64,000 nt of DNA from Thermoplasmatota archaeon (lineage in GTDB: Archaea; Thermoplasmatota; E2; JACPAO01; JAHFTW01): contig JBFIHX010000003.1 of assembly GCA_041601615.1 (NCBI GenBank), positions 128,001-192,000 of the forward strand, written 5' to 3'. Position 1 is the stretch's first letter; each line of letters starts with the position of its first letter. The notes under the pieces are model-generated. The model was not told where the DNA came from. It made no database searches and worked only from the letters and a program-made list of their open reading frames with translations. Of the stretch, positions 5,931 to 55,336 are shown piece after piece. The position numbers and the translations under genes were made by a program.

Positions 5931-7121
<1,191 letters not shown>

Positions 7122-7898: not shown

Positions 7899-8789
7899 GT
7901 GGTGCAAGCAGGCGACAGCAAGAAATGGATAGCGACCCTCCTGATGATGGTGGTCGTAGCGCCTCTGGTGGAGGCGGGCCCATTGGATTCTCAACTCGTG
8001 GAACCGGCCACCGTGGTCGCCCCGATTCATGAGCCAACGCTCGCGCAGCCATGGGATGCCAAGGTGTTGGAGTTTGACTTCCTCGCCCCCAACAAGGCCA
8101 ACCTGGTCCAAAACCTCGTCAGCGTGGCTCCTCCGAGCACCCCCCGCGTCATTCCAGACCCGCGGATCATCGAATCCCTCACCAACCCGGTCCGAGAAAT
8201 TCTCTCCATGCAACCGGGCGATGTACTGGAGGCAATTCCCTTCCAGCCGCCACGCAACCTCGAAATGGAAGTTCTCAGCCAATTCTCCATCTCCTTGACC
8301 TGGGAGGAACCCGGATCGGACGGCGCCACCGCATACCGCGTCTACCGCGCCGACTTGCCCAACAAAAATGGCTTGCCCCTCCTTGCCGCCAATCCTCGCG
8401 ACACGGCTTACCGCCCCGAGCCGATTGCAGAAGTTCCCGTCGGGACCACCAGCTACCAGGACGACAGCGTCACACTGGCCGACGAACACTATGCCTACTT
8501 CGTCACCGCCGTGTACGACAACCCGCTGCTCTTGCTGGCAGGATCGGCGCTCGCCCCAGAATCCAATGTGCCGGGAAGCTCCTCTATGGGACTGAGCCCG
8601 AGCATGAACGACGAAGTCGAATCCCTGCCCAGCAATGTCCAATCCACCGTCAACGGCACCGGACCCTGCCCCCCCGTGAACATTTCCTTTGACCCGCTCC
8701 TGGTGTTTGTCCAAGAAGACTGCATTCCGCCTCCGCCTTCCCTCATGGTCTCCGTGCCCAACGGGACCCACGTTCAGGTGAGCATGTGA
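7899..8789 (+). CDS. Secreted fibronectin type III domain protein with C-terminal Cys-loop (module copy 1, gene A)
   Basis: Signal peptide KKWIATLLMMVVVAPLVEA; Fn3 motifs PPRNL..ISLTW..YRVYR..SYQD..YAYFVTAV..ESLPSN; tail CPPVNISFDPLLVFVQEDCI; GTG start approximate. Confidence 0.72.
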   Translation: MVQAGDSKKWIATLLMMVVVAPLVEAGPLDSQLVEPATVVAPIHEPTLAQPWDAKVLEFDFLAPNKANLVQNLVSVAPPSTPRVIPDPRIIESLTNPVREILSMQPGDVLEAIPFQPPRNLEMEVLSQFSISLTWEEPGSDGATAYRVYRADLPNKNGLPLLAANPRDTAYRPEPIAEVPVGTTSYQDDSVTLADEHYAYFVTAVYDNPLLLLAGSALAPESNVPGSSSMGLSPSMNDEVESLPSNVQSTVNGTGPCPPVNISFDPLLVFVQEDCIPPPPSLMVSVPNGTHVQVSM

Positions 8790-10096
8790 AGGTCCTCGCG
8801 CTGCTACTGGTCCTTCTGCTGGCAGCGCCCGTGGCGGTGGCCAACACAAGCGAAGCCCCCCGCGTTGATGTCATCAGCACAGACGAGCCGTTCCGCCTCG
8901 AAGGAACACTGGGTGCCGTGCGCCAATCTCAGTCTGCCTTGACCGAGGCCCCCACCTCCATGCACCTTCTCCTACACGCCGAATCCCTGACGGTCCAGAA
9001 CCGCACCCGCGGCGGTTTCAACGAACTCGTCAGCGTCTCCGGCGACGAAGAAATGGAGACTACCCGATTCCAGGACGCAACCGTCATCGAACACGCGGCT
9101 CGCCAAGGACGGGACGTGTCGATCCACCCCATCGATGCAACGGTCATCCTCGAAGACGAAACAGGAACCTTCTCGCCCAACAGCAAGTCGCACGTGATGG
9201 CCTCCAACAACGTTGTCTTCGACGGCAAACCACTCATCACACCTGTCCACAACAGCACCGAAATCCAAACCACCACTCCCGTCGTCACCGTGCGCGGCGA
9301 CTTCATCGTCAGCCTCTGGGAAATCAGCGTTTGGATCCAAGGCAACCACCGTGGCTGGGACTACTTCTCCGGCGAAACCGACGCCCCCGGAGTCACCAAC
9401 TACACCATCGAAGACGGCATTACGGCGCCCGGCCCAAGCCTCTCCAACTCCACCGAAGTGTACCTCATCGTCCACAACGGCACCCTCCGAATGCAACGGG
9501 CCAACGGCGTTTTTTCTCTGTTTGTCTATGATCCCATTCTCAGCCTCTCCAGCGCAGAACTCTTCGGCGTCTCCGGCAAGCTCCCGGCACAACTGGGCGG
9601 CACCCAAGTGCGCGGCGGCGACCTTCGCCTCGCAGGCGACCTCACCCTGCAGCTCGGTGCCAGCGCCGGCCAACTCTCCTGGGATTTGGAAGGCCAAATC
9701 ACCAATGCAACCCTCAACGGGCAACCACTGGCCGTCGTAGCCCCGCTCCCCGGCGGACGCGCCGTTCGCTCGTGGCTCCCCTGGGCCACCACCGCACTCC
9801 TTCTCGGCATCGCCGCCGCCGGCTTCGTGCCCCTCCACCGTCACAATGCCCGCCGCCGCCTCGAAGACGCAGAACTCCTGTTTGCCGCAGGCCACTTCGA
9901 AGCAGCCGCCGCCGCATCACGGCCACGCATCCTGAGCGGCGTGGGCGCATCCGCCACCGCCATGCGGGTCCAAGCGCTCCTCCACGCTGGCCACATCGAA
10001 GAAGCGCGCCACCTCGCCGCTCGCGCCCGCATCACCGAACCCGGACTGCGAGATCTGGTGCAGCTCTACGTAGGTGACTGGGAGGGCACCGCATGA
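8786..10096 (+). CDS. Single-pass membrane protein: extracellular beta domain + TM + TPR-like tail (module copy 1, gene B)
   Basis: Signal peptide, TM WLPWATTALLLGIAAAGFV, TPR-like AELLFAAGHFEAA / VQALLHAGHIEEA; 4-nt overlaps with both neighbours; paralog of 30350 and 53237. Confidence 0.78.
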   Translation: MKVLALLLVLLLAAPVAVANTSEAPRVDVISTDEPFRLEGTLGAVRQSQSALTEAPTSMHLLLHAESLTVQNRTRGGFNELVSVSGDEEMETTRFQDATVIEHAARQGRDVSIHPIDATVILEDETGTFSPNSKSHVMASNNVVFDGKPLITPVHNSTEIQTTTPVVTVRGDFIVSLWEISVWIQGNHRGWDYFSGETDAPGVTNYTIEDGITAPGPSLSNSTEVYLIVHNGTLRMQRANGVFSLFVYDPILSLSSAELFGVSGKLPAQLGGTQVRGGDLRLAGDLTLQLGASAGQLSWDLEGQITNATLNGQPLAVVAPLPGGRAVRSWLPWATTALLLGIAAAGFVPLHRHNARRRLEDAELLFAAGHFEAAAAASRPRILSGVGASATAMRVQALLHAGHIEEARHLAARARITEPGLRDLVQLYVGDWEGTA

Positions 10097-10569
10097 CCCA
10101 AGACGCTCGTGCCCGACTCATGTCCTTCCTGGAAGAGCGCCCCGGCAGCTGCCTGCAAGACATCGCCAATTATCTCGGCATCGCCCGCACCAGCGCCATC
10201 CACCACGTCCGCGTCTTGCGCAACGACCGCCAAATCGTCACCCAACGCAAAGGCCGCCGCGTCCTACACTTTCCCACCGCCGTCGACGACCGCGTCCACC
10301 GCACCATCCTCGCCACCTGGCGCCTCGACACCGCACGATCCATCCTCCAAGAACTGGAAAAGGACCCCCGCAGCTCCTGGCGCGCCATTGCCCGCAACCT
10401 CCAGATCACCCCCCGCGCCGTGCGCTGGCACCTACAACGATTGGAAGACGACGGCCTCCTCAGCATCCGCCGCACTCCCGATGGGCTGCGCCACGAAGCC
10501 ATCATTCACCCAGGCGTCCGAACACTACGCCTCAACGAGGACCTTGGAAACTGGCCGCCGGGGCGTTGA
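10093..10569 (+). CDS. Tandem winged helix-turn-helix regulator, COG3398-like (module copy 1, gene C)
   Basis: Two wHTH units: R.RLMSFLEERPG..IHHVRVL and ILQELEKDP..VRWHLQRLEDDGLL. Confidence 0.85.
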   Translation: MTQDARARLMSFLEERPGSCLQDIANYLGIARTSAIHHVRVLRNDRQIVTQRKGRRVLHFPTAVDDRVHRTILATWRLDTARSILQELEKDPRSSWRAIARNLQITPRAVRWHLQRLEDDGLLSIRRTPDGLRHEAIIHPGVRTLRLNEDLGNWPPGR

Positions 10570-28578: not shown

Positions 28579-29415
28579 TTAGGATAGCGTCCAGCCCACC
28601 AGGCGGACTCCGCGAAGGGAGGGCTCGCGATGGACTTCGTCCAGCATTTCGTCCACGGGAACGAAGAAACTGAAATCGGCGCCCGGAATGGCAAAACTGC
28701 CTCCTTGCGACAGGATGCCTGCGGCCCGTCCGTTGGCAAGCATCAGCGGCGCGCCGCTGTCGCCCTGCATGGAGGGTGGGTCGAGGCGCACGACCAATTG
28801 ATCGCCTTCGGCAAGACCCACGGGCAGGTTGTCGCGGGTTACGAATCGACCCGACTTGACGTTGTCTGGGTCGTTTGGTTCTCGGAGGCTGCTGGCGCCG
28901 TAGGTGATGACTTCGGAGCCTGGGACCAGGGTGCTCGTGTCGGCGACTCCGGTTGGGCCGCCCCAGTATTCAACGGATGGGTGGGTGCGGTCGCGGATGC
29001 CGGCAAGATTGCGGATGGCCACGAGAGCGAAGTCGCGGCGCAGGTCCTCGCCGTCGGCCCAGCCATCGAATGCCACGTCGCCCACATGCACCATGCGACC
29101 ATTCCGGTCGGCGTAGACGTTGGCACCGAGGCCTTTGCGATCGGCGCCGGAGCCTAGGCAGTGGGCCGAGAACGACAGGTACAGGGTTGCGTTGTCGGCG
29201 GAGGCAAACAGGAAACCCGCCGTGCATTGCAAGGAGGTTCGGTCGTCCAGTGAAACGTAGAGTCTAGTCCCGGGGCGAAGGGTGGCGTCGGACTCGGAGG
29301 GCCATCCCACTTCGGGCCCAACTTCGTCGGGGCCGAACCCGAAGGATCCATCCAGGCACCCGGAAAGGGCAATCACGAGGAGGGCGGCGGCCACGGACCC
29401 GGTCCTGCGCACCAT
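28579..29415 (-). CDS. Lipoprotein trypsin-like serine protease
   Basis: LSGC lipobox; CTAGF, SAHC, DFALV, QGDSGAP. Confidence 0.87.
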   Translation of the reverse strand: MVRRTGSVAAALLVIALSGCLDGSFGFGPDEVGPEVGWPSESDATLRPGTRLYVSLDDRTSLQCTAGFLFASADNATLYLSFSAHCLGSGADRKGLGANVYADRNGRMVHVGDVAFDGWADGEDLRRDFALVAIRNLAGIRDRTHPSVEYWGGPTGVADTSTLVPGSEVITYGASSLREPNDPDNVKSGRFVTRDNLPVGLAEGDQLVVRLDPPSMQGDSGAPLMLANGRAAGILSQGGSFAIPGADFSFFVPVDEMLDEVHREPSLRGVRLVGWTLS

Positions 29416-29488
29416 CCCCACGCTGTCGCTGGGAACATAATCCTTGTCGTGAGGGTATCGAAACGAATGGCGCGGTGGAGTTCCGTAT

Positions 29489-29713
29489 TCAGGCGGTCCA
29501 CAGAGGCGCGTCGTCTGGTGTCTCGTCCAAAGCACGCAACCGCAACGCACGCGCTTCGTCGTGCTCGCGCTGGCTGCGGATAGCTGCCGCGATGAAGTCG
29601 GACCTTCCACGGTATCCAAGCCGCTTGCCGTACCGCTCCATGAAGGCATCCAGTTCCTCCACGATGTCCGTCGGCAACGACACGGGCATGGATGCCCGCT
29701 TGGCTTCCACCAT
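29489..29713 (-). CDS. Ribbon-helix-helix (CopG/NikR N-terminal-like) regulator
   Basis: VSLPTDIVEELD...GYRGRSDFIAAAIR; start uncertain (29713 or 29728). Confidence 0.78.
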   Translation of the reverse strand: MVEAKRASMPVSLPTDIVEELDAFMERYGKRLGYRGRSDFIAAAIRSQREHDEARALRLRALDETPDDAPLWTA

Positions 29714-29884
29714 GGCCCTAGGCACCATGTACTCGAATAAGAGCAAGCCGTACCAAGAGCGGCCCAGCACGACCTCCGTCGGCGTCGAACATCAAACAAC
29801 GCGTGCAATCACAAAACAAGTTGGCTTCATTTGCCCCTTCTTAGCCACGAACCTAATAACCAGACCGTGGGATTCGACAATGAT

Positions 29885-29926: not shown

Positions 29927-30346
29927 ATGCGAATCCTGTCTCTGGCCCTCGTCCTCTGCCTCGTTCCGAATGTCATGGCCTCGGGGGACCCAGATGGGGT
30001 CCCGGCCGTTCCCATCGTCCCCGGGACGAATGTGAACCTGCCGGATGCGGACCCAGCCTCGATTCCGGTCTGCCCGAAAGTCGAGGAGCCTGATCCAAGC
30101 TTCCCCCTGCATGGGACCTTTGTGGAAGACTGCATGGTCAAGGCATTCGGCGCCGTAGACACGGTCCTGGAGAAGGACCCGTTCATTGTCTGCACGCCGG
30201 CCCGCATCGGGCGGACCTCCAACATCCCATACTTCGGCGTCAACAAGAATGAGGAGTGCATCGACGACCTTGAGGACGCCGCCCGCGACCTCATCCAAGA
30301 TCCAGAAAGTGGTGTCCCCGGCTTCATCGTCCACTTGGGAGGATGA
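29927..30346 (+). CDS. Small secreted protein with two Cys-loop repeats (module copy 2, gene A)
   Basis: Signal peptide MRILSLALVLCLVPNVMA; CPKV..FVEDCM and CTPA..NKNEECI; GGTGA SD. Confidence 0.75.
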   Translation: MRILSLALVLCLVPNVMASGDPDGVPAVPIVPGTNVNLPDADPASIPVCPKVEEPDPSFPLHGTFVEDCMVKAFGAVDTVLEKDPFIVCTPARIGRTSNIPYFGVNKNEECIDDLEDAARDLIQDPESGVPGFIVHLGG

Positions 30347-30349
30347 TCC

Positions 30350-31867
30350 ATGAGGCGGGCGTCGTGGACCGTTTGCATCGTGCTGGTTCTCTTGCTCGCC
30401 GCTCCTGGCTCCTTGGCTTGGTCGGCTGATCTGCACGCCCGATCCGTCGAGGCCCATGGCAGTTCGAGAACTACAGCGAATCTGCAAGGGCTCTTTTTCG
30501 AGCAGGCCACCGCGGGCGATGCGCGAGGAAACCCCCAGTTCGCCCTGGAAGCCTCGTTTTTGGAAGTGACCGAGGAATACTCCCAGTTCTACGCGCTTGA
30601 CAACATAGTCAACCCCCTAGAGCCCGAACAACGAAGCCTCTACACGGGGCCCGGGCGCATCAAGGGGCTGCAAAACCAAGATGGCTATGCATTGTGGATC
30701 ACGGACGTGGGCCTAACGCCCGCGCGCGTAGAGGTTGAAGAGTCCCGATGCACGAGGCTTGTTCCGTCGGATCACGGTAGCGAGCGCCGATCCTACCACG
30801 TAGCCACGGCCCGCGACGACCTCATCGTGGACACCTCCGATTCCCTCCGGTGGCAGGGCTGCTCCAACGCAACTGTAACGATTCAGGGCGACCTGTCCTT
30901 GACCCTCTGGTACATCGATGCCGCCCTGGAAGGCAACGGCCGATTCATGCGACTGCAAAGTGGCTACGACGTGGATACCATGCCCGACTTTGGCGACCCC
31001 ATCGGAGGCGCTACGAATGCGCGATCGGCACGAGAACACTTCGTGGTGGCCCACAATGCAACCATGACGATTCCGCTGGAGCCCGGCACCTACGAAGCCT
31101 ACCTTCGAGATTCGAGCGTGCGCGGCGGTTCCTTGTTGCTGGTCGAGGCCACCGGTATCCTTGGAGACAATCAAGTATCCGAGGGCAACCTGGAGCTTCG
31201 CGGCGACCTCATGGCGTCGCTCACTTCCAACGCCGAGACCCGTGCCCTGGACGCCAGCATGAACGGCGAATTGGACCGAGCCGAAATGGACGGAGTGCCG
31301 CTTCCGCTTGCCTCCACAAGCATCGCTGCGCCGAAAACCAGTGCCATGCTGCCGTTCCTGCCCTTCCTGTTTGTGCCGCTCCTGGGTTTGGCTCTAGCGT
31401 GGTATGTGGTTCCCCACATCCTGCACGTCCATGTGCGCCGCCACCACCCCGAAGCACGAGCCGCTTCACTGCGCCAGCGCCGCGCTCAAGCGTGGTCTTG
31501 GCTTTCCGACCAAGCGGATGAACGCAGCCACGCATGGACCAGCCTGCTTCTGGCACGCTTTGCCACTTGGAGCCACCCGAACCCGTCGTACCTAGCCCAG
31601 CAAGTCCGGGCCCAGTGCAACCTAGGTCGCGTGGAGGCAGCGCTGCGCACCCATGCCCGCATCGACCGGTGGCTTCAGGGCGACGACCGAAACCGCGCCC
31701 GCAACGCATGGCATGCATACCGCCTGGCCCACCGACACGAGCATCCAGCCGGATCTATCTGGCTGGACCGGTCGCGGCGCTACCACCCAATGGAATTCCT
31801 GGAGTTGTCCAGGGCGTGGCCCACCGCAGTGGGTCGAGACCACGCCCCAGGGATGGGATACGCCTAG
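30350..31867 (+). CDS. Single-pass membrane protein: extracellular beta domain + TM + degenerate TPR (module copy 2, gene B)
   Basis: Signal peptide; VTIQGDLSLTLW..SGY..EHFVVAHNATM; LELRGDL..NGELD.A.MDGVPL; TM; ends GYA. Confidence 0.78.
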   Translation: MRRASWTVCIVLVLLLAAPGSLAWSADLHARSVEAHGSSRTTANLQGLFFEQATAGDARGNPQFALEASFLEVTEEYSQFYALDNIVNPLEPEQRSLYTGPGRIKGLQNQDGYALWITDVGLTPARVEVEESRCTRLVPSDHGSERRSYHVATARDDLIVDTSDSLRWQGCSNATVTIQGDLSLTLWYIDAALEGNGRFMRLQSGYDVDTMPDFGDPIGGATNARSAREHFVVAHNATMTIPLEPGTYEAYLRDSSVRGGSLLLVEATGILGDNQVSEGNLELRGDLMASLTSNAETRALDASMNGELDRAEMDGVPLPLASTSIAAPKTSAMLPFLPFLFVPLLGLALAWYVVPHILHVHVRRHHPEARAASLRQRRAQAWSWLSDQADERSHAWTSLLLARFATWSHPNPSYLAQQVRAQCNLGRVEAALRTHARIDRWLQGDDRNRARNAWHAYRLAHRHEHPAGSIWLDRSRRYHPMEFLELSRAWPTAVGRDHAPGMGYA

Positions 31868-32556
31868 GCCGTGCGAATAGCGAGGTCGTAGCCCGCCGCC
31901 GAGGCTTCCGCGAGTGCCGCTTCCAGGCTTGCTCCGCCTTCGCCCACGTGGACGAGTGTGTTCTGGCAGCAGGAAAGGCCTACGGTGTTGACGACGCCGA
32001 GTGCGAGTTTGCCGGCTTGAATCGCCACGGGTCCGCCCGAATCGCCAGGGGTCACGGGGAATTGGCAGTAGTGCTGGGCACCGTCGTTGTAGGTGAGGGC
32101 TCCAAAGCGGCCTTCACGAGTAGCGGCGGCGTAGCGGTAGCCGGTTCCGTAGCCACTGAATTGGCACACGTCGTCTAGGATCGTGGTGTCGGCTGTGGTG
32201 GCAACACCCTGGGGGTAGCCGGGGTTGCCCTTCATTTCGCCGTCCACGTCGCCCGTGCGGTTGGCGTAGACTTCGATGAGTACGAAATCCAGGCTTGCCG
32301 ATTGCCATGCGACGGTTCCGAAGTTGGCGCTGGGGTCCTTGACGGTGTCTCCGACGCCGCTGACGCAGTGGGCCGCCGTGGTTCCGTACACTTTGCCGGT
32401 GGATTCGTCATCGAAGATCCAGGCGAGGGTACACTGACCCGTGTTGGTCTGGATTTCGATTCCTGGTTGGATGGTGGCTCCCGCGGCACCAGCTACGGGG
32501 CTACCCGTGCCGGCCACGAAGAGAACAAGCGTCACTGCGATGAGCATCGTGCGCAT
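31864..32556 (-). CDS. Secreted trypsin-like serine protease
   Basis: Signal peptide; CTLAW, TAAHC, DFVLI, PGDSGGP. Confidence 0.88.
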   Translation of the reverse strand: MRTMLIAVTLVLFVAGTGSPVAGAAGATIQPGIEIQTNTGQCTLAWIFDDESTGKVYGTTAAHCVSGVGDTVKDPSANFGTVAWQSASLDFVLIEVYANRTGDVDGEMKGNPGYPQGVATTADTTILDDVCQFSGYGTGYRYAAATREGRFGALTYNDGAQHYCQFPVTPGDSGGPVAIQAGKLALGVVNTVGLSCCQNTLVHVGEGGASLEAALAEASAAGYDLAIRTA

Positions 32557-32679
32557 GTGGGGCCGATGCAACTCGCTCGAAATAAGCAGTGTAGCGGCGG
32601 ACCCAATCTGATGAGGAAGGAAAGGGAGAGAACCGGCCGGGAAAGTATGGCCGGGGACGAGGTTTGCTTCAGGCCGGGA

Positions 32680-50415: not shown

Positions 50416-52608
50416 ATGACACGGTCGGCGCTCGTCGTACTCGTAATCTTGCTGCTCCCCTCCACCCTCGTGGTCCCCGCAGGCGCAGCCGAAGTCCGAG
50501 CCAGCCTATTCACGGACGCCACCGGAGACGTGCAAATCCAAAGCGCCGACGGCGGCGTCTCCCAAGCCGACCCCATGTCCAGCGACAACCTCGACCTCGT
50601 AGGCGGAGGAATCTGGGCCGAAACCGACACCACCGTGACCTTCTTCGTGCACCTTGCAGGCCTCTCCGAAAACAGCCAAGGCGCCCCCTTCACCGACCCC
50701 GACTACACCCTCGACTTCCGCTACCACGGCCAAGGCTACCGCATCAGCATCGTAACCGCCCTCGGCAACCCCATCAACGACGCCTTCGGACGCGACACCA
50801 CCCAAGGCTGGCTGCAAAAAGAAGTCGGCCCCGGCCGCTACCAGAGCGTCGTCGACGCCGAAACCGAACTGGACTTCTCCGAAAACGTCGCCCGCGCCAC
50901 CGTGCCCCGCGACGCCATCGTAGACGAAAACCAAGCCCCCCTTGCCCGCAACGCCACCCTCACCGACGTGCGCGCCACCGCAAGCGCCCTCGGCTTCTTC
51001 GGATTCCCCGTATCCCTCGACGGCAGCGGCTCCGGCCCACGCGTCGGCGCCCCACGGTTCTTTGATCAAGCCCCCGACACAGGCCTCGGCGGCACCTACA
51101 CCATGACCACCGGACAAGTGCGCCAACGCGGCGCCCTGTTTGCCGTTAGCGACGACCCCGTACGCTGGACCAACGGAGAAGCCACCACCCTCACCTTCAC
51201 CGCCCGCCTCACCAACACCGCCAGCAAAGACATGCCCGTCCACGTCACCACCAGCAACGTCGACCCTTCCTGGCAAATCGCCTTCAGCGACGCCCTCACC
51301 GTCGGCGCAGGCCGCAGCATCAACGCAACTCTTCTCGTCACCATCCCCTTTGTGCACCAACACGGAATCCTGCGCCAATTCAACGCCGAATTCACCTCCA
51401 CCGACGGGCAAAGCCTCGCCGCCGTCCCCCTCGGCATCTACTGGGCCGAAGTACCCCAACCCGCCGGCCACCACGACACCGTCTGGTTCCACGGCCTCAC
51501 CCAAGAAGTCACCCCGCCCTTCAACGCCGTCTTCGGCGGCACCCACGGATGGTTCAGCGCCAAAGAAGAAGTAGACGGAGACGAACGCAAACCGATCCCC
51601 GCCAACTTCGCCATGGTGCCCAGCCCCGCCACCAACAACCGCGGCATCGCCTTCTGGAGCTTCAGCCTCGAACCATCCCTACGCATGGGCCTCGACTTCC
51701 TCCTCGACGAACAAGGAGCCGCCGACATCACTCTCGACCTCGCGACCCCCGCCCTCGACCCCAGCATCAAAGTCCAAGTCTACTACCTCGAGCAACGCGC
51801 CCTCGACACCGGCGACAACCGGCCCGGACAACGCAACACCATCACTGAACGCACCCTCCTAGCCGAAGGCGTCAGCGAAGTCAAAAGCGGCACCATCAGC
51901 GGCCCCCAACTCTTCGAAGTGCCCATCCAAGCACTCGCCGAAGCCGAAATCATCCCCTACGGCGGCGACGGCAACCTGTACATCCAAGTGCTCCTCGACA
52001 GCACCTTCCTTCTCGGCACCGGCTTCGTCGCCAACGACGCCACCGCACCCAGCCTCGATCCACTCGCCTCCCGCGTGCGCCTCCCCCTCGAAGAATACCA
52101 CGACCCCGTCGACCTAAGCTTCCAAACCGACGGCAGCCTCAGCATCAAAGCCGGCCCCGACGGCCAAGACCGCCTCATCAACCCCGGCCGAACCATCGTC
52201 TACACCTTCGACCTCACCTACGCAGGCGCCTCCCCCGCCACCTTCCAAGCCCAACTCAGCGGCGCCAACGTCCAATGGGCCACCATCCTCGGCGACAAAC
52301 AGTTTGACCTAGCCCCCGGCGCCCAACGCAGCCTCGCCGTCTCCGTCCACGCCCCAGACGACGCCCGCGAAGGAGACGCAAGCGACCTAACCCTACGCGT
52401 CACCAACACCGCAAACGCAGCCATCCAAGCCGGCATCAACCTACGCACCCTCGTCACCACCAGCCAAGACATCCCAGACGAAGCCGGACGCGGCAGCGAA
52501 CTCGACGGCGAACTCAGCCAAAGCAAAGAAAGCCCCGGCCCCGGCCTTGTCCTGCTCCTCGCCGCCGTTGCTGCCCTGGCCATCGCCCAGCGCCGACGCC
52601 GCAACTAA
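50416..52608 (+). CDS. Surface protein, His-motif family copy 3 with an extra Ig-like domain and ESPG-TM-RRR tail
   Basis: DATGDV, RWTNGEAT, PFVHQHG, QPAGHH..WFH, LEPSL.MG, LPLEEYHD, ESPG+TM+RRRR. Confidence 0.82.
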   Translation: MTRSALVVLVILLLPSTLVVPAGAAEVRASLFTDATGDVQIQSADGGVSQADPMSSDNLDLVGGGIWAETDTTVTFFVHLAGLSENSQGAPFTDPDYTLDFRYHGQGYRISIVTALGNPINDAFGRDTTQGWLQKEVGPGRYQSVVDAETELDFSENVARATVPRDAIVDENQAPLARNATLTDVRATASALGFFGFPVSLDGSGSGPRVGAPRFFDQAPDTGLGGTYTMTTGQVRQRGALFAVSDDPVRWTNGEATTLTFTARLTNTASKDMPVHVTTSNVDPSWQIAFSDALTVGAGRSINATLLVTIPFVHQHGILRQFNAEFTSTDGQSLAAVPLGIYWAEVPQPAGHHDTVWFHGLTQEVTPPFNAVFGGTHGWFSAKEEVDGDERKPIPANFAMVPSPATNNRGIAFWSFSLEPSLRMGLDFLLDEQGAADITLDLATPALDPSIKVQVYYLEQRALDTGDNRPGQRNTITERTLLAEGVSEVKSGTISGPQLFEVPIQALAEAEIIPYGGDGNLYIQVLLDSTFLLGTGFVANDATAPSLDPLASRVRLPLEEYHDPVDLSFQTDGSLSIKAGPDGQDRLINPGRTIVYTFDLTYAGASPATFQAQLSGANVQWATILGDKQFDLAPGAQRSLAVSVHAPDDAREGDASDLTLRVTNTANAAIQAGINLRTLVTTSQDIPDEAGRGSELDGELSQSKESPGPGLVLLLAAVAALAIAQRRRRN

Positions 52609-52684: not shown

Positions 52685-53215
52685 TCAAGCCACGTCGATG
52701 CCTTCCGGCATCGCCGGGCTCGGATCCAACAACTCCGTCAGACCCTCGTCCGCAAAGTAGCGATTCGTTTGCAAGCCCTTCTGCTCCGCAACCAACCCCG
52801 CATCCACAAGGGGCGCAATGCTGGCACGGAACGTCTTACGAGAAACACTCACCGCAGTACAGACATCCACCTGACGACTGCCCGGGTGATCTTGGATGAA
52901 GCGAGCAATCTCCTGGCGGCGACCCTGATTCAAGACACCCATAATCTGGGCCCGCTCAGGATCAATGCCGCCCACGAAAAAGCGGCGCTCGCGGCCCGCA
53001 GAAACCGCCGTCACAAGGTCGCCCTTGTCAAGTAGCGCAAGGTGGTACTGCACCGTACCCCAAGCTTCCCCGGACTCCCTGCACAAAGCACTGGCATGGA
53101 TTCCAGGCCGAAGCTGGATCAAATCTAGGATACGACGGCGCACCGGCTGGGCAAGCAGTGCATCAGGGTCCGCGTCATGAACCCGAGCAAACAGCATCAA
53201 CAGTGCCTCGAACAT
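52685..53215 (-). CDS. Tandem winged helix-turn-helix regulator, COG3398-like (module copy 3, gene C)
   Basis: RRRILDLI..RPGI...GTVQYHL..L; second unit I..HPG...LVDAGLV..RYF. Confidence 0.87.
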   Translation of the reverse strand: MFEALLMLFARVHDADPDALLAQPVRRRILDLIQLRPGIHASALCRESGEAWGTVQYHLALLDKGDLVTAVSAGRERRFFVGGIDPERAQIMGVLNQGRRQEIARFIQDHPGSRQVDVCTAVSVSRKTFRASIAPLVDAGLVAEQKGLQTNRYFADEGLTELLDPSPAMPEGIDVA

Positions 53216-53236: not shown

Positions 53237-54754
53237 TCAGGTATAACCGTGTGCGTCGCTCTCTAGAGCTTGCGCCATGGAAGGGGCCGGAGCGACGTAT
53301 CCAGGAACCTGGTCTGCCAACGCGGGCGTGCGCTTCACGGCCTCCGCAAGGGCCGACTGGGCCCGGTTGTTCTTGCCCATGTCGCGGTACGCAAGGCCCA
53401 GGACATAGTGCAGGGTGCCATCGGAAGGGTCGTTGCCGTTGAGGTACGACTCAAGATTGCGAACGACACGCTCAGGCTGCCCCGTGCGAGAGAGGGCAAT
53501 GGCGCGACCCAGATGTGCGCTCTCGCGCTTCGGGTCCTCGCGTAGAATTCGAGTAGCAAGCCGAGCAGCACGCGTGAACGCACCTGCCTCCAGCGCCTGC
53601 TCCATGTACTCCAAGGGAGGAGCCACGTCGCGGCGTGAACGGATGATGAATGCGATGGCCGCCCCAAGAACGAGGAGAGTCACGATCGGCCAAGCCACGA
53701 ATCCCGCGGGCTTGTACCAGGAAGAAGATTGTCCGAATCCCTCGTTGGAGCTGCTGGAGAAATCCATGCCCAAGCGGTGGGAATCGTCCGGAACGAGCGT
53801 GCCCGAGTACCCCTCAGTAAAGAGGAGTTCAGACTCGTGCGAGCCATCCACTCCATCGTACGAAATTCGACCGTTGTCGCCGTTCACTTCGACGTCCTCG
53901 GATACCCATTGAACGATGTGGTTGATGCCGCTGAGTCGAATGCGGAGATCGCCGTCCGTGACAATCAGTCGAAGGTGCGATTCGCGGCCCTGCGTGACTC
54001 CACCAACGAGTTCTGTGTGGGTCAAGCCCGTATCGTAGGAGTTGGGCGCCGTGTCATCGGAGTCCAAGTTCACCGTGGGGCCCAAAATCTCGAGAATGAA
54101 ATCGCCGAGAATGCGAGCATCCACGACGCCGCCGATGGTCTCCGTGAGCACCGTGGGCTCCGTAATGGAGCGGCGCAAGAAGGTTCGCGTATCTCCGGTG
54201 GACGCCGAGTCTTGATCAACAGAGTTCGGGTCGCGCTCCACGAGTCCTTCCGAGGTGGAAAGGAACTGCGCTTGCGGAAGGGAAGAGTAGTTGCTGACGC
54301 CGCGCACCATGCTGTGGATGGTGCCGCCTTCGCCATTGCGGCTGATGCGCACATCAAAGGATGGCGACGAGCCCTTGGATTGGAGTGTGATGCTGTTCAG
54401 TGGATTTGCTTCGCTAGCGATGGACTCTGAAGGGTCAAGTGGCGTTTGTTCCGGGAGATTTGCCTCCACGGGACCAAGCGTTCCGTTTGCAGATCGCAAG
54501 TAGGTCCGCTCGAGGTAGTGACCCCAACCGCTTGCGGCGGAGAGCTCCAAAAGAGGCGCGCCGTAGCCGTCCTCCGCTGCGATACGGAACAAGCCAAGAT
54601 CTCCTTTCTGCTTCATGACTCCGTGATGCTGCATGGCAGTGGCATCCTCCGAGAGAATGTCAATTGCCTTGGCTGCGTCTACGGAAGGTGCTGCCATAAG
54701 AAGCACCGTGAGAAGAACGGTGGTGCGGATGACAGGGTTTCCTTGACGTAGCAT
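53237..54754 (-). CDS. Single-pass membrane protein: extracellular beta domain + TM + TPR (module copy 3, gene B)
   Basis: Signal peptide; ILGDFILEI..YDTG..RESHLRLIVTDGDL; TM; clear TPR AHLGRAIAL..G, LHYVLGLAY..MG..A..AL..A; ends GYT. Confidence 0.82.
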   Translation of the reverse strand: MLRQGNPVIRTTVLLTVLLMAAPSVDAAKAIDILSEDATAMQHHGVMKQKGDLGLFRIAAEDGYGAPLLELSAASGWGHYLERTYLRSANGTLGPVEANLPEQTPLDPSESIASEANPLNSITLQSKGSSPSFDVRISRNGEGGTIHSMVRGVSNYSSLPQAQFLSTSEGLVERDPNSVDQDSASTGDTRTFLRRSITEPTVLTETIGGVVDARILGDFILEILGPTVNLDSDDTAPNSYDTGLTHTELVGGVTQGRESHLRLIVTDGDLRIRLSGINHIVQWVSEDVEVNGDNGRISYDGVDGSHESELLFTEGYSGTLVPDDSHRLGMDFSSSSNEGFGQSSSWYKPAGFVAWPIVTLLVLGAAIAFIIRSRRDVAPPLEYMEQALEAGAFTRAARLATRILREDPKRESAHLGRAIALSRTGQPERVVRNLESYLNGNDPSDGTLHYVLGLAYRDMGKNNRAQSALAEAVKRTPALADQVPGYVAPAPSMAQALESDAHGYT

Positions 54755-54759
54755 ACGAA

Positions 54760-55248
54760 TCAGTAGGTTTGGATGTAGATCCGGCTGGGTTTGTTCTGCT
54801 TGAATACTTGGGCGAAACCATCGAGGTCGGTCTCCGGTACAAGGGACCAAATCGTTTCAAGGTTCACGCAAGCGTCCAGATTGTAGACGACAAGGTCCGC
54901 GATGATGCTCGGGACCAACGCTACAGGACTGTAGTAGGTCACGGCCGAGAGGACCGAGTAGATGTTTGCGAGATTCAAGGTGATGCAGGTCGGTTCCTTG
55001 TTGCTGGAATCGTCGTATGCTTCGGGGTTGTTCGTGAGAATCTGAACGTCCCCGACTTGGACCATGGTTGCACCAGACATGCATGGTCCAAACTCGGTAC
55101 AATCGTCCGTGAAGAGGTCCACATCAATGAAGATGGGTTGGAGGTCCACTCGGAGCTCTGTTAGCTCCATGGGCTCCGCCTGGACGGGGGCCGCCACAGC
55201 CAAGAGCATGAGTGGTATGAGCGCGTTTCTGACACCGATTCGGGACAT
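54760..55248 (-). CDS. Small secreted 4-Cys protein (module copy 3, gene A)
   Basis: Signal peptide ending VQA; CTEFGPC and CITL...VVYNLDACV; GGTGG SD. Confidence 0.75.
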   Translation of the reverse strand: MSRIGVRNALIPLMLLAVAAPVQAEPMELTELRVDLQPIFIDVDLFTDDCTEFGPCMSGATMVQVGDVQILTNNPEAYDDSSNKEPTCITLNLANIYSVLSAVTYYSPVALVPSIIADLVVYNLDACVNLETIWSLVPETDLDGFAQVFKQNKPSRIYIQTY

Positions 55249-55336
55249 GGAATCCACCTGAACAAACCGTCGATGGATGCGGCCGGGTAAAAGTGTTCGC
55301 GACGTATCCGCGGTATCTAGTGATATTTGGCTCATC

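Follow-up and report, generated by a model that had tools for sequence, protein, structure and literature searches.

The stretch of DNA analysed here, called the window, comprises 64,000 nt from a Thermoplasmatota archaeon (contig JBFIHX010000003.1, positions 128,001 to 192,000). It contains three copies of a gene cassette in which a secreted protein (A) is followed by a single-pass membrane protein of one paralogous family (B) and, in two of the copies, by a protein with two winged helix-turn-helix domains (tandem wHTH protein, C). The source genome (2.79 Mb, 61.6% GC, 30 contigs) is 93% complete, and the sequencing runs containing the locus, four in number, were only DNA runs of one marine metagenome study. 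For its ribosomal protein L15e, the best matches (92-81% identity) are to metagenome-assembled genomes labelled Thermoplasmatota or Thermoplasmata. Positions elsewhere in this genome are given as contig:position. The window corresponds to C3:128001-192000, contig C3 being distinct from protein C3. The cassette genes are as follows, TM and TPR denoting transmembrane and tetratricopeptide repeat.

7899..8789, plus strand: A1, secreted protein of 296 amino acids (aa), from open reading frame (ORF) and translation
8786..10096, plus strand: B1, putative type-I membrane receptor of 436 aa, in a family of 23 paralogs
10093..10569, plus strand: C1, ArsR-like tandem winged-helix protein of 158 aa, with PF24266 and HTH_24 matches
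29927..30346, plus strand: A2, small secreted protein with two Cys-loops
30350..31867, plus strand: B2, paralog of B1, 505 aa, without a wHTH gene downstream
52685..53215, minus strand: C3, tandem wHTH protein of 176 aa, predicted binder of the B3 tail
53237..54754, minus strand: B3, paralog of 505 aa if counted from the ATG at 54754, its TPR tail scoring above the Pfam cut-off
54760..55251, minus strand: A3, secreted protein with four Cys residues, the last Cys pair 38 residues apart

A sequence-only reading of this DNA had described three translationally coupled genes at 7899-10569, and the overlaps are indeed present. A1, B1 and C1 lie on the same strand, the A1 stop overlaps the B1 start as GTGA at 8786-8789, and B1 and C1 overlap as ATGA at 10093-10096. 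The same gene order recurs, as stated there, on the minus strand at about 55251-52685, where the genes are 5 and 21 nt apart, and at 29927-31867, where the third gene is missing. A1 has a signal-like N-terminus; toward its C-terminus it has a Cys-loop (C-x17-C), with 21 residues behind it. B1 consists of a signal peptide (residues 1-19), an all-beta ectodomain (about 21-320), a TM helix (about 325-350) and a short, helical, TPR-like tail (352-436). C1 matches PF24266 with 43.6 bits (cut-off 31), HTH_24 at 7.3e-17 and an ArsR/SmtB subfamily of NCBIfam at 6.8e-13, the latter under its cut-off. C3 matches PF24266 with 48.3 bits, and both proteins contain two HTH_24 stretches. In the whole genome, 43 matches to PF24266 (HTH_HVO_0163_N) were detected.

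Comparisons of the B proteins revealed a large and divergent family. For B1 and B2, paralogy is clear from BLASTP (2e-12). Pairwise BLASTP between B3 and the other B copies was not significant, and B3 was recovered at 1.9e-5 among the 18,716 ORFs of its own genome by a hidden Markov model (HMM) built from six other paralogs. The middle genes of the three cassettes are therefore paralogs, as had been proposed, and their ectodomains are homologous by profile. When the HMM searches were iterated, the set for this single genome converged at 23 full-length B paralogs (436-612 aa) and two fragments. All 23 share a signal-like N-terminus, about 300 extracytoplasmic residues and one TM helix at about 300-440, and end in a tail of 85-170 residues with basic residues at its start, just after the helix. 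The predicted ectodomain of about 300 aa is all-beta (AF2 pLDDT 93.6). Its model has no match to a solved structure in the PDB, and the top Foldseek rows were aerolysin-like beta-pore-forming proteins and class II fusion proteins. B1 matches no Pfam or NCBIfam family, and neither collection holds an ectodomain model for the B family.

Among 1.84 billion public representatives, a profile of signal peptide, ectodomain and TM helix retrieved 880 clusters at E<=1e-3, 495 at E<=1e-10 and 106 at E<=1e-30. A HMMER profile search was needed for this: a word-based homology search with B2 retrieved B2 alone, no usable match to B2 was obtained in a protein atlas, and B2 as sole query for related loci yielded no relative. 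An N-[GA]-T sequon is present at a conserved position (consensus GTL, alignment columns about 530-540) in the ectodomains of many paralogs; B1 has an N-G-T sequon at window positions 9464-9472 and several further N-x-S/T sites. Judged from the sequences, these sequons would fit N-glycosylated surface proteins.

The tails of the B paralogs fall into two types, which connect the family to the tandem wHTH regulators. In 17 paralogs the tail is TPR-like; in the remaining six it is replaced by a PF24266-type tandem wHTH about 10-25 residues behind the TM helix. In the ectodomain tree, a quick tree with many long branches, the six fused paralogs form one clade (SH-aLRT 99), sister clade to B, and tail type requires four changes compared with a mean of 10.8 after shuffling. 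Fused forms are also present among the best 149 public representatives, 12 in number. Behind seven of the 17 non-fused paralogs lies an independent wHTH gene in the same orientation, with its start at -113 to +89 nt, and four of these seven pairs overlap by 4 nt. With 39 wHTH ORFs in 2.79 Mb, simple arithmetic gives a chance expectation of about 0.02 of 17.

Comparable arrangements were found in relatives. Taking 51 neighbourhoods, 43 contained a near-full ectodomain match; C is adjacent in 16 of them, fused in six and absent in 17, and four are cut by a contig end, leaving 39 scorable loci. The gene order is thus conserved in other genomes, a check suggested by the sequence-only reading. Since both split and fused forms exist, a functional link between B and the wHTH regulator can be read from the genomes. 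Conservation of C3 is strong, with 118 clusters of mostly 51-90% identity, and 20 homologues of B3 were found; linkage of the two homologues is suggested indirectly in at least six cases. Matches to B are present in 19 of 24 genomes of the same order, with up to 18 matches per genome, and were not found in six sampled genomes from other orders of the class. In a phylum-wide sample, 16 of 201 genomes matched B at 1e-8; these belong to the own order and to three families of other classes (f15, f33 and f37), and in the sampled genomes from other orders of the same class B was again not found, a statement that holds for these samples only.

The TPR-like cytoplasmic part described in the sequence-only reading stands for B3, whose tail is above the Pfam cut-off, and is a weak call for B1 and B2. 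The tail of B1 is the shortest and does not include the middle TPR repeat that in B3 holds interface residues 443-454 of the complex model described below. A Pfam scan of B1, B2 and B3 showed no DNA-binding domain. In NCBIfam, the tails gave weak matches to TPR chaperone and assembly factors (SctY at 8.4e-7, MamA, PilW), all far under the cut-offs. Many TPR-type tails terminate in [GAS]-[YF]-[AST]-COOH. Tyr is the last residue but one in 26 of 124 non-fused representatives, compared with 52 of 3,819 own-genome ORFs of at least 200 aa, and is near-invariant there in the B3 orthologues, which keep the tail and a C-terminal G-Y-[AST]. The two instances in the window are:

31859-31864, plus strand: GYA, C-terminus of B2
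53240-53245, minus strand: GYT, C-terminus of B3

This motif lies outside the modelled interface with C3; one could speculate that a protease, the proteasome or a TPR docks there.

A complex of the B3 tail (residues 372-505) with C3, chosen as the best-defined pair, was modelled with custom alignments. The median ipSAE was 0.70, the best control reaching 0.15. Of solved complexes, 58 of 80 came up to that mark, as did two of 110 mismatched pairs, counts that apply only roughly with custom alignments. Contacts agree between runs to at least 86%, with a partner pLDDT of 77 or more. In the predicted interface, the TPR groove faces residues 1-11 (the N-terminal segment), 23-26, 50-58 and 75-77 of C3. 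Residues 50-58 are the recognition helix of the first wHTH (wHTH1), with invariant W52, T54 and Y57, and residues 75-77 its wing; G446 and Y450 of B3 and W52 and Y57 of C3 are among the modelled contacts. Recognition helix and wing are the usual DNA-reading elements of ArsR-type domains. Conservation among B3 orthologues is 0.84 for the tail interface, 0.70 for the remaining tail and 0.42 for the ectodomain; in C3 the interface core scores 0.90 compared with 0.76 for residues 20-160. A conserved tail and a variable ectodomain suit a fixed partner inside and a changing input outside. For copy 3, to which the modelled contact refers, the model supports binding of C3 by the B3 tail. The proposed link of receptor and effector is supported by this model, which passed its controls, together with the fused clade and the wHTH adjacency in the own genome and in relatives. 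Diversification of the cassette into several specificities also agrees with the data: the 23 paralogs have divergent ectodomains, and the tail is conserved among B3 orthologues.

For A proteins, a less uniform picture was obtained. A signal-like ORF on the same strand ending beside the B start, either a secreted Cys-loop protein or a lipoprotein, is present in 19 of the 23 cassettes, and one further cassette has an 826-aa secreted protein upstream of B. In relatives, A was found by a crude rule in 28 of 40 evaluable loci. In the TPR subfamily, each of the 14 A proteins has a terminal pair of Cys residues with a spacing of 14-38 residues. A stricter Cys-loop rule (a loop of 14-25, then 10-35 residues to the C-terminus) selects 12 of these 14 and 43 of 951 other secreted-like ORFs. 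In the fused clade, all five A proteins have 266-292 aa and a lipobox-like [LFC]-S-G-C, and three of them are mutually homologous (1e-21 to 1e-32). An fn3-like segment is present in four A proteins of the TPR subfamily; in Pfam, A1 and the A protein of cassette C20 match fn3 independently with 15.3 bits (E 0.023) and 17.5 bits (E 0.0048), respectively, the cut-off being 25. The labels C20, C13, C23, C11 and C1 here denote cassettes elsewhere in the genome, not proteins. A2 resembles the A protein of cassette C23 (BLASTP 3e-5), and A subfamilies track the clades of B: the A proteins of C13 and C23 and A2 go with the B proteins of C13 and C23 and B2, and the A subfamily of C20, C11 and C1 likewise tracks its B proteins. 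A and B therefore duplicate together. The lipobox of the fused-clade A proteins and the fn3-like domain of several others make a membrane-proximal co-sensor, comparable to ToxS or TcpH, at least as likely a role for A as a diffusible ligand.

Further proteins of the own genome combine this tandem wHTH, again at the C-terminus, with a signal peptide, a single TM helix and an ectodomain that ranges from 70 to about 600 residues. Their ectodomains are different or very divergent. They are encoded at:

C3:204852-207317, minus strand: membrane-wHTH protein
C17:47531-49555, plus strand: membrane-wHTH protein
C2:162793-164525, plus strand: membrane-wHTH protein
C5:124336-125409, plus strand: membrane-wHTH protein
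C8:28257-29402, plus strand: membrane-wHTH protein

From these it appears that membrane tethering of the tandem wHTH is a wider habit of the lineage.

With moderate confidence, we favor the interpretation of the cassette as a transmembrane signalling system of receptor and anti-regulator. B would be a type-I membrane receptor with an outward all-beta ectodomain and one membrane-crossing helix, and its TPR-like tail inside the cell would grip the C protein of its own cassette by the DNA-reading face of wHTH1. Bound C, presumably a DNA-binding protein, would stay at the membrane, probably off its operator. An extracytoplasmic cue, sensed as we infer by the ectodomain together with the secreted or lipid-anchored A, would alter the hold of the tail on C through a conformational change or through proteolysis of B, and C-dependent transcription would then change. 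In the sister clade, with a wHTH in place of the tail, a single polypeptide would serve as membrane-bound regulator. More tentatively, and with less than even confidence, the cassette could be an archaeal counterpart of the bacterial extracytoplasmic function (ECF) sigma/anti-sigma pairs, a duplicating unit (up to 23 per genome) in which a receptor of new fold, with its cognate secreted Cys-loop protein or lipoprotein A as co-sensor, grips a cognate wHTH regulator by the recognition helix through the TPR tail and lets it go on a cue from outside, the fused clade being the one-component form.

Several observations weigh against the favored interpretation. In 12 of the 40 evaluable loci of relatives no A was detected, the detection rule being crude, and BLAST does not unite the A proteins in one family. 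An adjacent wHTH gene is absent for 10 of the 23 own paralogs and in 17 of the 39 scorable loci of relatives, so that the tail may have other partners. The fusions, in which the TPR is replaced by the wHTH, are evidence for a wHTH working with the ectodomain-TM module and not for the binding of a wHTH by a TPR. For copy 1, the putative contact of B1 with C1 is based on the overlapping genes and on analogy, since B1 is without the middle repeat, its TPR signal is weak and the model is that of copy 3. Finally, the recognition helix of wHTH1 in C3 (W-G-T-V-Q-Y-H) is devoid of basic residues and may thus be a surface devoted to protein binding, in which case a tether fits as well as an inhibitory hold.

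Such a tether is the basis of an alternative that we regard as unlikely, in which B and C form a permanent two-subunit membrane-bound regulator: wHTH1 would be held, wHTH2 would bind DNA without any release, and the signal would alter the activity of what is in effect a non-covalent version of the fused clade. In that clade the same tandem wHTH sits next to the TM helix, so the domain can evidently work at the membrane, and regulators acting from the membrane are described for bacteria and archaea (PMC10269533). The invariant basic residues of C3 (R126, K127, R130) are located in the second wHTH and the modelled interface in the first, and for this reason the model fits a permanent tether too. 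Inhibitory hold and permanent tether are both compatible with the present data, including the predicted complex. However, the modelled interface covers the recognition helix and the wing of wHTH1, and separate genes for B and C would permit release and turnover.

Less probable still is a role of A and B at the cell surface, in adhesion, in cell-cell recognition or in the structure of the envelope, with C as an ordinary local autoregulator physically unconnected with B. The long, all-beta, fast-evolving ectodomain rich in N-x-S/T, the fn3-like domains in several A proteins and the 10 of 23 cassettes without C would suit such proteins. Against this reading stand a whole clade in which the ectodomain-TM module is fused to a wHTH, a tail much more conserved than the ectodomain in B3 orthologues, and a model of B3 tail and C3 that passed its controls. 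We consider it highly improbable that the TPR tail docks a non-regulator, i.e. a protease, the proteasome or an assembly machine, and that the cassette serves protein turnover or secretion. The enriched C-terminal motif with its near-invariant Tyr in B3 orthologues, the weak TPR chaperone and assembly matches and the two trypsin-like protease genes flanking copy 2 point in this direction, but wHTH adjacency and fusions would be left unexplained, and the motif, being outside the modelled interface, could coexist with C binding.

Other genes noted in the window are:

5931-7121, minus strand: 396-aa ORF, presumably a bacterial-type S-adenosylmethionine synthetase (MetK) from the pattern of its translation
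28579-29808, minus strand: secreted trypsin-like serine protease gene flanking cassette 2 on the opposite strand
29489-29770, minus strand: 93-aa ORF between protease gene and A2, no Pfam match at E<=0.01
31864-32571, minus strand: second secreted trypsin-like serine protease gene flanking cassette 2 on the opposite strand
50416-52608, plus strand: 730-aa secreted protein with a FixG_C Ig-like domain (2.4e-9), adjoining cassette 3

The flanking proteases match Trypsin at 3.2e-5 and Trypsin_2 at 2e-4 in Pfam. At its C-terminus, the FixG_C protein has a hydrophobic segment followed by the basic tail RRRRN.

To our knowledge, little is known about membrane-to-transcription signalling in archaea beyond some few two-component systems and a small number of membrane-bound regulators. 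For one group of uncultured Thermoplasmatota from the sea and from sediments, the B family could be a major route of such signalling. Its 23 receptors are comparable in number to the whole two-component set of the genome, for which 21 HATPase_c and 13 receiver matches were counted; their presence led us to reject the idea that B is the only transmembrane signalling route of the genome. One HATPase_c gene (C3:85252-85554, minus strand) is situated just upstream of the cassette at C3:83527. Seven pairs of receptor and regulator in one genome are available for a comparison of specificities, and the ectodomain of about 300 residues is confidently modelled and matches no solved structure. Should the hold of a TPR on a recognition helix prove true, archaea would have reached an anti-factor mechanism independently.

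Among known systems, ECF sigma/anti-sigma pairs such as RseA-sigmaE, RsiV-sigmaV and FecR-FecI likewise have a protein that spans the membrane once and carries a sensor domain on the extracytoplasmic side. The cytoplasmic domain of bacterial anti-sigma proteins holds a co-transcribed transcription factor by the surface that reads DNA or RNA polymerase, many paralogous pairs are present per genome and accessory extracytoplasmic partners are common. Archaea, as far as we know, are without sigma factors. The cassette, by contrast, comes from an archaeal host and has a tandem ArsR-like wHTH as effector and a TPR as its holder, and B is oriented N-out/C-in with a cleaved-type signal peptide, whereas the anti-sigma proteins are N-in. 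No sigma70 or anti-sigma family was among the Pfam hits of the A, B and C proteins (E<=1) or of the 23 paralogs (E<=0.01).

BlaR1/BlaI and MecR1/MecI resemble the cassette in that a membrane sensor is encoded with a winged-helix repressor, and three fused paralogs show weak Penicillinase_R matches (best 5.5e-5). Unlike in BlaR1 and MecR1, however, the B tail is a TPR or a wHTH, and no Peptidase_M56 or beta-lactam sensor domain was detected by Pfam in any B. TPR anti-repressors and RRNPP regulators (GmaR-MogR, Rap, NprR, PlcR) also belong to the closest known systems.

Transmembrane transcription regulators (TTRs), among them ToxR/ToxS, TcpP/TcpH, CadC and archaeal ArnR-type proteins, are defined by a TM region and a DNA-binding domain in one polypeptide (Demey et al. 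2023, PMC10269533), and about four membrane-bound regulators per archaeal genome are reported in that study. The six fused paralogs fall under this definition; B1, B2 and B3 do not. A small extracytoplasmic partner gene adjoining the regulator gene is a further likeness, to ToxS and TcpH (PMC11323476). The cassette differs from TTRs in its reversed orientation, the DNA-binding domain being C-terminal behind a type-I ectodomain, in a wHTH that is PF24266/ArsR-like and tandem instead of OmpR-type, and in an ectodomain without known fold, and the copy at 7899-10569 is split into receptor and regulator. In the literature searched, no description was found of the ectodomain family, the split form of receptor and wHTH or the expansion; the supplementary TTR lists of PMC10269533 may include fused members. 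The claim of a new module therefore holds for a new family and a new variant and not for a new principle, since archaeal membrane-bound regulators as a class are already described (PMC10269533). In its logic, the cassette is closest to single-pass anti-sigma/ECF sigma pairs and to ToxR-type regulators, and it is a member of neither group.

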